Part shown: positions 57,599 through 61,389 of the stretch, piece by piece
Position numbering within the stretch: the stretch's first letter is position 1
Layout: each line of letters opens with the position of its first letter
DNA from: a bacterium
GTDB taxonomy: Bacteria > UBA8248 > JACPRG01 > G963555815
Direction of reading: 5' to 3'
Assembly (NCBI GenBank): GCA_963555815.3
Contig: CAUVWX020000001.1
Location: 192,001 to 256,000 of the forward strand
Length of the DNA stretch: 64,000 nt
Made by a program: the position numbers and the translations under genes
The notes under the pieces: model-generated
What the model was told of the DNA's origin: nothing
The model's input: only the letters and a program-made list of their open reading frames with translations
Database searches by the model: none

Positions 57599-57627
57599 TT
57601 GACAGGGGCCAGTCCTGCGGATAATAT
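57599..57627 (+). promoter_or_regulatory. Sigma70-type promoter upstream of hpnH
   Basis: TTGACA-N17-TAATAT. Confidence 0.6.
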
Positions 57628-57812: not shown

Positions 57813-58931
57813 GTGTCAGTTCCCCTGATTCAGCAGATTCGCGTTGGCGCATACGTGCTCAAGAAGCGCATCAGCGGGACCAAGAGATATCCGCTGGTGC
57901 TCATGCTCGAGCCCCTGTTCCGTTGCAACCTGGCCTGCGCCGGCTGCGGCAAGATCGACTATCCAGATCCCATTCTAAACCTGCGCCTGAGCGTCCAAGA
58001 ATGTCTGGAGGCGGTCGACGAGTGTGGAGCTCCCATCGTGTCCATACCCGGAGGCGAGCCCCTCCTGCACCGTGAAATCGGCGAGATCGTCGAGGGGATC
58101 GTCACCCGCAAGAAGTTCGTCTATCTGTGCACCAACGCCCTCTTGCTGGAAAAAAAGCTCCACCTGTTTAAGCCCAGCCCCTATCTCACCTTCTCCATCC
58201 ACCTCGACGGCGACCAGGAGCATCATGACGCCTCTGTCTGTCAGGAGGGCGTGTACGACCGGGCGGTCAAGGCGCTCCAGGCGGCCCGCGAAAAGGGCTT
58301 CCGCGTCAACATCAACTGCACGCTGTTCGACGGGGCTGAACCGGAGAACGTGGCGAAGTTCTTCGACGACGTCATGACCTTCGGCATCGAAGGGATCACC
58401 GTATCCCCGGGCTACGCCTACGAACGGGCGCCGGACCAGGAGCATTTCCTCAGCCGCCAGAAGACCAAGCAACTCTTCCGTGACATCTTCCGTTACGGCA
58501 AGGACCGCCACTGGTCCTTCAGCCAGTCGACCATGTTCCTCGACTTTCTGGCTGGCAACCAGCAGTATCACTGCACCCCGTGGGGCAACCCGACGCGCAA
58601 TATCTTCGGGTGGCAGCGGCCGTGCTACCTCCTTGGCGAAGGCTACACCTCGTCCTTCAAGGAGCTGTTGGAAGAGACCGAATGGGACATGTACGGCACC
58701 GGCAATTACGAGAAATGCTCCAACTGCATGGTCCACTGCGGCTATGAGGCCACCGCCGTCACCGACACCCTAGCCCACCCGCTGAAGGCCCTCATGGTCT
58801 CCCTGAAAGGCGTCCGCACCGACGGCCCCATGGCCCCGGAGATCCCCCTGGGCAAGGCGCGGCCTGCCGAATACGTCTTCTCAGAACATGTCGAGGAGGC
58901 GATGGCGGAGCTGAGCGGGGAGGCCAAATAG
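57813..58931 (+). CDS. hpnH: Adenosyl-hopene transferase HpnH (radical SAM)
   Basis: YPLVLMLEPLFRCNLACAGCGKIDYP, SIPGGEP, CTPWGNPTRNIFGWQRPCYL, CSNCMVHCGYE. Confidence 0.95.
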   Translation: MSVPLIQQIRVGAYVLKKRISGTKRYPLVLMLEPLFRCNLACAGCGKIDYPDPILNLRLSVQECLEAVDECGAPIVSIPGGEPLLHREIGEIVEGIVTRKKFVYLCTNALLLEKKLHLFKPSPYLTFSIHLDGDQEHHDASVCQEGVYDRAVKALQAAREKGFRVNINCTLFDGAEPENVAKFFDDVMTFGIEGITVSPGYAYERAPDQEHFLSRQKTKQLFRDIFRYGKDRHWSFSQSTMFLDFLAGNQQYHCTPWGNPTRNIFGWQRPCYLLGEGYTSSFKELLEETEWDMYGTGNYEKCSNCMVHCGYEATAVTDTLAHPLKALMVSLKGVRTDGPMAPEIPLGKARPAEYVFSEHVEEAMAELSGEAK

Positions 58932-59075
58932 CGGGGGCGTACGCACACCCGCTCGGTTTAAGAAAATCCCCCTCAGCTCATCTCGGACATCGGCAAGAAA
59001 GAGACCCAGGCTGGCGGGGACCCGATATAAAGAACTTGATAGGGCATCTCTGAGGCTTAGAAGGGGTGAAAGGAA

Positions 59076-59813
59076 TTGGCCATTCAGCATAAACAGAACC
59101 GGTATAGACAGAATCGGCGAACACCTCCGGGGCCGTTGGCGGGCCTTTGGTCGTGGCAGTATTACGACGTCCGCAAGATGTTCGGGATCCTCCTAAACCC
59201 CACGGTGAAGTCCTACTATAAGATGTTTCCAAAGATCTTACCCCTGGGCTCACAGTTCCCGGAAATAGAGCTGGAGATCGCAGCCGGGGGGAAGATCAAC
59301 ACAAAACAGCTTCGATGGAAAAAGCACTTTGTCCTCCTCACCGGGTCCATCACCTGACCGCCAAGCCGGAGGCAGTTGCCTCTTATGGAAGAGCTGGCAA
59401 GAAAGTATAGGGACAGGGATGTGGAGATATTTCTCATGTATGTCCAGGAACCCCATGCGGGGAACCGGGGCTATCGCCAGTTCCGAAAGGGGGGTTTTCG
59501 CAAGTACCGATTTCACGAGAGTGATGAGCATAAGATGGAGGTCGCGAAGCTCCTTGTGAAAAAGCACGGTTTAACCATCCCCTGCTTGGTGGATGGCGTT
59601 GACGAGAAGGTCCACCGGATCATTGGAGGACTCCCGAACCTTGTCTATGTGGTGAATAAGGAGGGGGAGATAGTGTACAAGTGCAGCTGGACAGACGCCG
59701 ACGTCATTGACGACATTTTGGCACAGCTCGTGACGGCGGATGACCCATCTCGCCCTGTCCAAAAGACGATGGACGACCGCCGTGTCCCGGGACGGATCCC
59801 CGTTGAGGTCTGA
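59076..59813 (+). CDS. Deiodinase-like thioredoxin-fold selenoprotein (UGA at 59355-59357 read as Sec)
   Basis: Track ORFs 59076-59357 and 59376-59813 are in frame; the join reads LLTGSIT-U-PPSRRQLPLMEELARKY...MYVQEPH, matching the deiodinase GSxTUPP...EAH pattern. Confidence 0.82.
59369..59382 (+). other. Candidate bacterial SECIS hairpin
   Basis: GAGGC-AGTT-GCCTC stem-loop starting 11 nt after the UGA, with G in the loop. Confidence 0.55.
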
Positions 59814-59952
59814 AAACCTGGAGCCAGTCAGGGTTGGCCTGAGGCGACCCTTTGCCAAGCGAAAGGCGGGCTAAAAGGTGACGGCACAAAGAAACCTCTT
59901 CTCATTGCGTTTCCCGGCCAACGTCATGCGCCCCCATAAGAGAGCGGATACA

Positions 59953-61389
59953 ATGCGGCTCTTTGTCCTTCTTTTTTCCCTTCTCCTCGCCCTCCCAGCC
60001 GAGGCGGCGATCCGCGTCGCCGTCTTCGACCTCTCGAACCAGTCGGGAAACGGCGCAAAAGAAGAATATAGCTGGGTCGGCCTCAATGTGTCCGAAACCC
60101 TAGCCGGTAAGCTCTCCGAGGTCCCTGGTGTCCAAACCATTCCGCGGCCCATGTGGAAAGATCTCGCCCAGAAACTCAAGTTCTCCTCTTCTGATCTTCT
60201 TGACCAAAAGAACGCCCTCCGGATCGGAGGGTTTCTTGGGGTGAACACAATTATTCTTGGCTCCTTCACCGTCCTTGAAGAAGAGATCAACTTCAACTTC
60301 CGTTTTGTCGACGTCGATACAGGGACACTTCTCAGGAACTTAAACCGTACCAGTCCAAAAGATGACCGCCTCCTTGAGACTCTCGCGGCGTTCTCTCTTG
60401 AGGCCGTCGAGGCTCTGAATCATAGGGTGATAGACGGCGAGGTGGTGGCTTTGCCTCCCGAAGAGAGACTGGAGGTCGCCGAGGAGACAAAGGAGAAGAT
60501 TCAAAGGCCGCCGACTAAGAATCTGGAGGTCTATGCCTTATTTGGAAAAGGAAACGAGGCAAATGACCAAAACCGCTGGGAGGAGGCCATCTCCCTCTAC
60601 CGGCAGGTCCTCGAACTTGACGAGGACTACGCCGAGGCCTGGCAGAGCCTGGGGGGTGTCCTGACAAACCGCGAGCGGTTGGAAGAGGCGTGGGAGGTGG
60701 GAAGGAATGCCCTCACTATCTTCAAAGAACGGGGAGATGAGAGGAGGAGGGGGGAGATTCTCAATTACCTTGGCGTCGTCATGGAAAGGCGCGGACGCTT
60801 CGAAGATGCCGATGAACTCTACAAGGAGAGCCTGGATATTGAACAGAAAATCAATAACGAGCCCGGCATCGCGCGGACGCTGAATAACCTGGGAATTATC
60901 GCTATGAATCGCGGACGCACCGTCGCGGCCGAGCGGCTCTACCGGGACAACCTGGAGATTGAAAAGAGAATCGGCAACAAGCCCAGCATCGCACAAACCC
61001 TGAATAACCTGGGAGTGCTCGTCTATAGCCGGGGGCAATTCAGGAACGCCGAGGAGTTCCTCCAAGAAGGCCTGGTGATTAAGAGGGAACTGGGCGACGC
61101 CCTGAGTGTCGCAAGGTCGCTGAATAACCTTGGAATCATCGCCGTGAGAGGCGGACGCTTGAAAGAGGCCGAAGGATTCTATGAGGAGAGTCTGGACATT
61201 CTAAGGGAAGCTGGCGATGTCCCAGGCGCCGCCCTAGCCCTCTTCAACCTCGCCCTTCTCGGAAGAGACCAGGGCTTAAAGGACCCACCCCTCCTTCAGG
61301 CAAAAGAGGCCCTTGAGACATTCCGCAGGATAGGAAGCCCATATGTGGACAGGACGGAATCTCTCATCCAGCAGCTCGAGAGCCGCTAG
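59953..61389 (+). CDS. Exported TPR protein with an N-terminal TolB-N/CsgG-like domain
   Basis: Signal peptide MRLFVLLFSLLLALPAEA, VAVFDL, IILGSF; 40-aa TPR units (LNNLG). Confidence 0.8.
   Translation: MRLFVLLFSLLLALPAEAAIRVAVFDLSNQSGNGAKEEYSWVGLNVSETLAGKLSEVPGVQTIPRPMWKDLAQKLKFSSSDLLDQKNALRIGGFLGVNTIILGSFTVLEEEINFNFRFVDVDTGTLLRNLNRTSPKDDRLLETLAAFSLEAVEALNHRVIDGEVVALPPEERLEVAEETKEKIQRPPTKNLEVYALFGKGNEANDQNRWEEAISLYRQVLELDEDYAEAWQSLGGVLTNRERLEEAWEVGRNALTIFKERGDERRRGEILNYLGVVMERRGRFEDADELYKESLDIEQKINNEPGIARTLNNLGIIAMNRGRTVAAERLYRDNLEIEKRIGNKPSIAQTLNNLGVLVYSRGQFRNAEEFLQEGLVIKRELGDALSVARSLNNLGIIAVRGGRLKEAEGFYEESLDILREAGDVPGAALALFNLALLGRDQGLKDPPLLQAKEALETFRRIGSPYVDRTESLIQQLESR
60880..61140 (+). 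repeat. Coding tandem repeat with 120-nt period (TPR units)
   Basis: CTGAATAACCT recurs at 60880, 61000 and 61120. Confidence 0.75.

Follow-up and report, generated by a model that had tools for sequence, protein, structure and literature searches.

We find that a single 245-codon frame at 59076..59813 on the forward strand of the window (the whole stretch of 64,000 nucleotides that was analysed) contains one internal TGA, at 59355-59357, which is almost certainly decoded as selenocysteine (Sec), making the gene that of a deiodinase-like selenoprotein. This reading follows from the Sec machinery of the source genome, from TGA in every homologue examined at this column, from codon tests that back a hairpin downstream of the UGA, and from nine further redox genes with in-frame TGA in the same genome. 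Sequence comparison places the gene in an all-Sec branch that spans almost the whole phylum, is marked by a distinctive N-terminal extension and lacks any conserved cysteine.

One reading frame with an in-frame UGA

The list of open reading frames cuts 59076..59813 into pieces of 93 and 145 amino acids in the same frame. An earlier note on this DNA held the two to be one frame broken only by the TGA at 59355, and translation with TGA read as U bears this out: the readthrough product has 245 residues and contains both motifs named there, GSIT-U-PP (here GSIT-U-PPS around predicted Sec94) and, downstream, YVQEPH at residues 122-127. The GSIT spelling stands for this gene but not for the family, in which Ser, at the position of Dio3 Ser167, is a minority state and Ala is found in 108/111 rows. 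The frame opens with TTG, at the codon where the same-genus orthologue has ATG, and closes with a TGA stop; a likely ribosome-binding site, GGGGTG (59063..59068, +), lies 7 nt 5' of the TTG. The promoter and terminator scan gave no site immediately 5' or 3' of the gene on the + strand.

The in-frame UGA (59355..59357, +) encodes predicted Sec94, equivalent by alignment to Sec170 of mouse Dio3. It is spanned by contigs of three sequencing runs from three studies, all of which show TGA and no alternative letter; the TGA is therefore not an assembly error. In one RNA run, one contig covers 59070-59316 and another comes from paralogue-like sequence; neither reaches the UGA, and DNA carry-over is possible.

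Conservation of the UGA across the branch

Sixty-one genomes were searched, 51 within the phylum and 10 outside it. Matches at E below 1e-30 were obtained in 48 of the 51, with one to four per genome, and none of the 10 outside genomes gave a match better than 2e-5. TGA is contained in 108 of 110 rows at E<=1.5e-33, the remaining two being C-terminal pieces. At the Sec column itself, TGA is present in all 59 distinct genome loci fetched (three further pieces lack that column) and in 79/79 alignments covering the column among the best 80 of 219 metagenome hits (67 distinct), or 138/138 examined. More distant database proteins have Cys at this position in 120/133 aligned rows. The earlier note had tied its reading to Cys or TGA at this position in homologues and to Sec machinery in the genome; both are found, the latter as described below.

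The phylum of the branch is probably UBA8248/Spongiamicota, to judge from the names that its database proteins carry (below) and from its 51 genomes forming a single class; the second name was chosen for abundance in sponge metagenomes, according to the available text of PMC11920076. Three UBA8248 genomes, under Nitrospinae/Nitrospinota names, are given among the ten most selenoprotein-rich of BSepDB in the accessible part of PMC13326102; the word 'deiodinase' is absent from the BSepDB text and supplement (genome list, first about 4 million characters), which does not mean that these genes are missing from it. In protein databases nearly all entries of the branch are halves, under the name 'hypothetical protein [Nitrospinae/Nitrospinota bacterium]', so that the predicted splitting by gene callers is borne out in the stored C-terminal halves. 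A single-sequence protein search returned only the gene's own C-terminal half, and a search of genome contigs with the gene returned only two same-genus loci; a six-frame PF00837 search of the source genome missed the gene and is thus insensitive. About a hundred genes across 48 genomes look intact, and the correction of their annotation from 'hypothetical' halves is secure throughout the phylum.

Selenocysteine machinery and other likely selenoprotein genes

All four components that the earlier note proposed looking for were found in the source genome (95.7% complete): selA, selB, selD and tRNA-Sec score above cut-offs, and tRNA-SeC(TCA) is also called by ARAGORN. The selD gene has an in-frame TGA of its own. 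Across the phylum, selA is present in 49/51 genomes.

A coding-potential scan of in-frame TGAs in the source genome yielded candidates; 16 regions were taken up, of which 13 were translated and nine with redox-type motifs were scanned with models. All nine match Prx-like, AhpD, TlpA-like, CopZ, Grx, ArsC-like or Grx-TrxR models, most below curated cut-offs. Eight are likely TGA-split selenoprotein genes (L089, L092-L096, L098, L103): one Prx-like, two AhpD-like (CxxU), two TlpA-like (UxxC), one CopZ-like (CxxU), one Grx-like and one ArsC-like. The ninth (L097:183-1367, -; about 589280-590470 of contig C2) is a 395-residue fusion of a glutaredoxin domain with UPWC, its in-frame TGA at codon 12, and a thioredoxin-reductase/AhpF-like domain. 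The Sec system is evidently in wide use in this genome.

A hairpin downstream of the UGA

The hairpin reported in the earlier note is found where it was placed, starting 11 nt past the UGA, with GAGGC at 59369-73, the loop AGTT at 59374-77 and GCCTC at 59378-82. Folding gives a 6-bp stem of -15.6 kcal/mol, and the predicted bacterial SECIS upper stem-loop (59368..59383, +) reads GGAGGC, AGUU loop, GCCUCU, with the loop 16 nt after the UGA and G at loop position 2. We take it to resemble the E. coli fdhF element. It also agrees on every listed point with the bSECIS consensus as given in the available text of a recent review (loop of 3-9 nt with G within the first two places, 16-37 nt from the UGA, stem of 4-16 bp, MFE <= -7.5; PMC13188914), a rule that is loose, being satisfied by 14,549 of the 64,293 TGA triplets (23%) in the six frames of the genome. 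Folding energy was dropped as evidence for a SECIS element, since it is not above chance when considered alone (z of 0.10 for 66 nt and -1.04 for 43 nt).

Codon usage at the hairpin is more telling. Four stem pairs and the loop G are retained in 66 of 84 distinct homologue segments, against 3.3 +/- 1.8 (maximum 10) in 2000 synonymous recodings, and the loop is AGGU or AGUU in 82/84. Among 59 homologues, the Arg codon at +5 ends in GG in 58 and codon +6 is CAG in 57; codon +7 is GTG in 44/45 cases of Val and TTG in 14/14 cases of Leu, for which the backgrounds in the same genes are 40% and 11%. Paired cells amount to 92.9%, against 79.1% in shuffled alignments and at most 77.9% for slid partners, figures which, like the other hairpin statistics, are inflated by the relatedness of the sequences and are not probabilities. 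Both sides are changed in 46 cells, a count that none of the 500 shuffles reaches. Against the slid controls, the structure comes out ahead in percent paired and in covariation score but not in double changes, of which the +1 slide has more (54). Within the reach of such sequence tests, we conclude that the hairpin codons are under selection beyond that on the protein sequence. The loops of selD and several other selenoprotein genes of the source genome differ, so that there is no genome-wide hairpin motif to lean on.

Family, fold and branch-specific parts

The deiodinase-like assignment made in the earlier note holds, PF00837 being the best Pfam match at 37.4 bits (cut-off 27) and matching 44/44 branch members at E<=0.001. 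The AhpC-TSA and Redoxin models also pass their cut-offs (30.9 and 33.5 bits). NF038285, a model of 347 positions with a cut-off of 250 bits, gives 73.5 bits over residues 57-203, and NF002854, used as a test for TlpA/ResA, gives 39 bits against 170. When PDB sequences are ranked by the family profile, Dio3 (5e-16) and Dio2 (2e-14) precede ResA (4e-13); in single-sequence comparison ResA scores above both.

The predicted model (pLDDT 87.6) has a thioredoxin/peroxiredoxin core at about residues 49-226. Foldseek lists ResA and peroxiredoxins at the top, and VIA gives a near tie across TlpA, ResA, Bcp, AhpE, Dio2 and Dio3 (Z of 15.9-14.7, with 15.1 for Dio2 and 14.7 for Dio3), so the structure search does not single out the deiodinases. 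The VIA alignments are longer for Dio2 and Dio3 (161-164 residues) than for the higher-Z ResA, TlpA and Bcp/AhpE chains (133-150).

Two parts lie outside this common core. The N-terminal extension, about residues 1-53 (59076..59234, +), carries a PPGP..G.WS..Y motif conserved in the branch alignment, with PPGP found in 0/133 outside representatives, and basic amphipathic helices modelled at 20-29, 32-40 and 42-53. Its net charge is +9 in this gene, and it has no transmembrane segment; a maximum 19-residue hydropathy above 1.6 occurs in 0/44 members. These helices may form a lid over the pocket, mediate dimerisation or make contact with the surface of the membrane. An insertion of eight residues (139-146; 59490..59513, +) forms a loop beside the active site, is present only here and in the same-genus orthologue, and has low pLDDT at 138-144. 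The source genome holds a second copy on contig C2 (591675-592370, +; L049:5176-5871) that is 67% identical, has the same hairpin, does not have the eight-residue insertion and stands between genes for an M28 peptidase and a TPR protein.

Active-site residues

Alignment with Dio3 places Thr93, Sec94, Tyr122, Glu125, His127 and His147 at Thr169, Sec170, Tyr197, Glu200, His202 and His219. The YVQEPH segment (59439..59456, +), aligned to 4TR3, supplies Tyr122, Glu125 and His127, with Tyr in 111/111, Glu in 110/111 and His in 111/111 rows; His147 (59514..59516, +), at the place of the proton-relay residue His219, is His in 109/111. The Thr/Tyr/Glu/His/His network is thus 98-100% conserved over the 111 rows. 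A Dio3 proton network that includes Thr169, Tyr197, Glu200, His202 and His219 is described in the accessible text of PMC12025243.

Other positions depart from Dio3. Pro187-Asn188 (59634..59639, +; Pro in 110/111, Asn in 106/111) aligns with the Pro of ResA and with Dio3 Phe258-Glu259, and the invariant Trp205 (59688..59690, +; 111/111) would occupy the place of Dio3 Arg275 if the alignment is extended three residues past its end. Because the Pro-Asn pair and the Trp are common to Cys-type relatives, they mark the bacterial group and not the branch. Ile92 and Ile168 stand at the columns of Dio3 Cys168 and Cys239. Cys170 and Cys203 of this gene are not conserved, and 32/56 intact proteins contain no Cys at all. 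The residue three after Sec is Ser here and Y, F, T, S or A in 111/111 rows, Cys in 0/111; the branch form is UPP[YF].

Comparison with known proteins

Bacterial deiodinase-like selenoproteins were reported from the Sargasso Sea in 2005 (PMC1088965, available text), prokaryotic ones were counted in the GOS survey of 2008, whose accessible table gives no motif for the family (PMC2398784), and a 2026 review tabulates a deiodinase-like protein with the motif UxxC and describes its function, in the text available, as largely unknown (PMC13188914). The present branch resembles this prokaryotic family (PF00837) in its UGA at the deiodinase Sec position, its downstream bacterial SECIS and the existence of Cys homologues elsewhere. 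As set against these published descriptions, it differs in having UPP[YF] in place of UxxC, an N-terminal extension peculiar to it and one to four paralogues per genome. The absence of UxxC marks a subtype only, the GOS table giving no family motif. The family has been predicted since 2005, and the gene is a solid new example of it from a distinct, all-Sec branch. A literature search over titles and abstract openings, with most subscription papers outside its coverage, returned no assay of a bacterial member and no description of this branch.

With vertebrate Dio1-3 (PDB 4TR3, 9H48) the branch shares a Trx/Prx fold that includes the deiodinase insertion, a Sec placed in G[SA]xT-U-PP and the equivalents of Thr169/Tyr197/Glu200/His202/His219; for statements on the Dio fold and dimer we rely on the available text of PMC11592359. 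In contrast to Dio1-3, branch members have no transmembrane anchor and no resolving cysteines (Ile at the Cys168 and Cys239 positions), have Asn at Glu259, probably Trp at Arg275 and mostly Ala at Ser167, and carry the SECIS within the coding sequence. Identity in structural alignments is about 20%.

Bacterial proteins of the NF038285 'deiodinase family protein' type and the broader Cys-type group have the same core, and T-C-P, YxxExH, the Pro-Asn pair and the Trp are frequent in 133 relatives; the branch differs from them in Sec instead of Cys, in its termini and in scoring far under the 250-bit cut-off. In the nearest Cys group (18 rows), most of ten sequences inspected have a hydrophobic N-terminal leader. 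TlpA/ResA and Bcp/AhpE proteins have the same core fold (Z 15-16), with the branch Pro aligned to that of ResA, whereas the branch has no CxxC (UPPS here) and no peroxiredoxin Arg and adds the YxxExH loop and the second His.

Genomic neighbourhood

The gene lies between hpnH and a gene for a TPR protein. HpnH adenosyl-hopene transferase (57813-58931, +; TIGR03470, 564 bits) has no other hopanoid genes around it in the 16 kb covered, and a strong sigma-70-like site at 57599 goes with it. A hopanoid role for the deiodinase-like gene was dropped, the upstream hpnH being common only to the same-genus genome. The TPR gene (59878-61389, +; probable start 59953) has an N-terminal CsgG-like hint. A TPR gene is 3' of both paralogues, and the two TPR proteins are 45% identical over 275 residues. 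Near the C2 paralogue, at a distance of two genes (about 1.2 kb), lies the divergent Grx(UPWC)-thioredoxin-reductase fusion, which is a self-contained candidate reductase.

Orthologues stand directly beside selB-selA in three loci of the same family (L027, L053, L056), an arrangement not seen in the source genome. Luciferase-like monooxygenase genes occur in 22/128 clustered loci, and MFS transporters, cyclases, flavin reductases, dehydrogenases and a mycothiol-transferase-like gene recur at others. The neighbourhoods compared gave no conserved operon and no halogen-metabolism gene standing out. Searches with PF13486 (corrinoid dehalogenase) and PF01328 (heme haloperoxidase) gave no match, and neither did their controls.

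Possible function and alternative readings

We tentatively propose a single-selenol reductase of thioredoxin/peroxiredoxin fold that would most likely dehalogenate a small halogenated aromatic and be recycled by external thiols. Deiodinase-type chemistry is favoured because the family profile ranks Dio3 and Dio2 over ResA, PF00837 is matched in 44/44 members, the Dio alignments are longer and the network is conserved. SelB with Sec-tRNA would bind the hairpin 16 nt downstream and insert Sec94. Following the scheme drawn for Dio3 in the accessible text of PMC12025243 and PMC11592359, the selenolate would take the halogen as X+ while His127 helps to hold a phenolic substrate, and His147-Glu125 together with Thr93/Tyr122 would deliver the proton. 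Since the branch has no conserved cysteine, an outside thiol would re-reduce the oxidised Sec, a candidate source being the Grx(UxxC)-thioredoxin-reductase fusion near the C2 paralogue. The substrate is probably not a thyronine, to judge from the Asn and Trp at the Glu259 and Arg275 positions.

Several observations argue against dehalogenation. The same residue network occurs in Cys-type proteins of a very large family (at E<=1e-10 it has 1,762 representatives, part of which were inspected), and so wide a distribution may not suit a halogen-specific role; the Ser167 position is mostly Ala; halogen-metabolism neighbours are absent from the loci compared; and the 2005 paper, in its available text, expects a function other than the animal one for bacterial deiodinase-like proteins (PMC1088965). 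It is quite possible that the selenoprotein is a single-selenol reductase for a non-halogen substrate. Such an enzyme would act on a small molecule or a partner protein, in which it would cleave S-S, S-Se, S-O or thiol-adduct bonds, and would use the deiodinase-type pocket for binding only. Retention of the ResA-aligned Pro, best fold matches among thiol-disulfide oxidoreductases, the altered thyronine-binding positions and a genome rich in redox selenoproteins are all consistent with such an enzyme. The monooxygenases at 22/128 loci, with the flavin reductases, dehydrogenases and mycothiol-transferase-like gene at others, point the same way, but shared synteny between related genomes accounts for part of this, and enzymes of these kinds may simply occur widely in the phylum. 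Tyr-x-x-Glu-x-His and the second His, moreover, are deiodinase features, and ResA does not have the motif in the alignments.

Peroxiredoxins have Thr or Ser three residues before the peroxidatic Cys and a catalytic Arg. The position of that Arg presumably corresponds to the thioredoxin cis-Pro. A 1-Sec peroxiredoxin-like peroxidase reducing hydroperoxides or hypohalous acids would fit the AhpC-TSA and Redoxin scores, the place of Bcp and AhpE among the tied fold matches and the Ser three residues before Sec in this gene. The signature is nevertheless absent from the branch, with Ala in 108/111 rows at the Ser position and Pro in 110/111 at the Arg position, and the genome has a separate Prx-like selenoprotein; we consider such a peroxidase improbable. 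That the TGA is a true stop (in a pseudogene or between two proteins) or encodes Trp or Gly under another genetic code appears, on conservation, close to refuted: the hairpin alone is not significant and two branch database proteins (P0003, P0004) read through the Sec position as Gly or Trp, but TGA is fixed at the catalytic column even in paralogues of as little as 36% identity, both halves being intact, TGA terminates ordinary genes here, this gene included, the Sec machinery is present, and the Gly and Trp records probably stem from gene calling under other codes.

Within the dehalogenation reading, a bolder version, which we regard as rather unlikely, would add the branch, all-Sec and independent of cysteine, to the cobalamin and flavin types of bacterial reductive dehalogenase as a third, selenium-based type. 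Genomes throughout this marine, partly sponge-associated phylum would then keep between one and four specialised copies, with the N-terminal helices and the variable loop setting specificity for natural organobromine or organoiodine compounds. If so, deiodinase chemistry and its origin could be studied in a soluble protein that has no membrane anchor. Release of halide would make the protein a selenium-dependent bacterial dehalogenase and would bear on the origin of the thyroid-hormone deiodinases; pending a function, the gene simply adds to a family that is already catalogued. The branch is apt for testing function: it has no transmembrane anchor, its model is confident, its hairpin resembles that of E. 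coli fdhF, the two paralogues of the source genome differ in the loop beside the active site, and one of them lies close to a candidate reductase.

Related and broken copies

In the tree, the 111-row Sec clade alone has a weak support of 0.41, and the clade joined with 18 mostly Cys rows has 0.97. The tree was made from a family-biased alignment and rooted at its midpoint; some of its rows are near-duplicates and none is from an animal, and for these reasons no conclusion on origin is drawn from it.

Broken copies are seen at L051, L054, L056 and L082:4947-5618; one, in genome G003, is split by about 1.4 kb of insertion-element-like sequence, and the others are frameshifted or have lost the front half. 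They may represent real decay or assembly error. A different tandem deiodinase-like pair with signal peptide is present in genome G008 (L058:4903-6096, +), its first member matching NF038285 weakly and its second containing TGSST-U-TMY with an in-frame TGA. Another Sec subfamily (L176-L184) has FGSIT-U-PPFVGEV, a YNY N-terminus and a longer C-terminus, as seen in rows L180, L181, L183 and L184, and its hairpin has, in two aligned segments, a G-C pair where the present branch has C-G.
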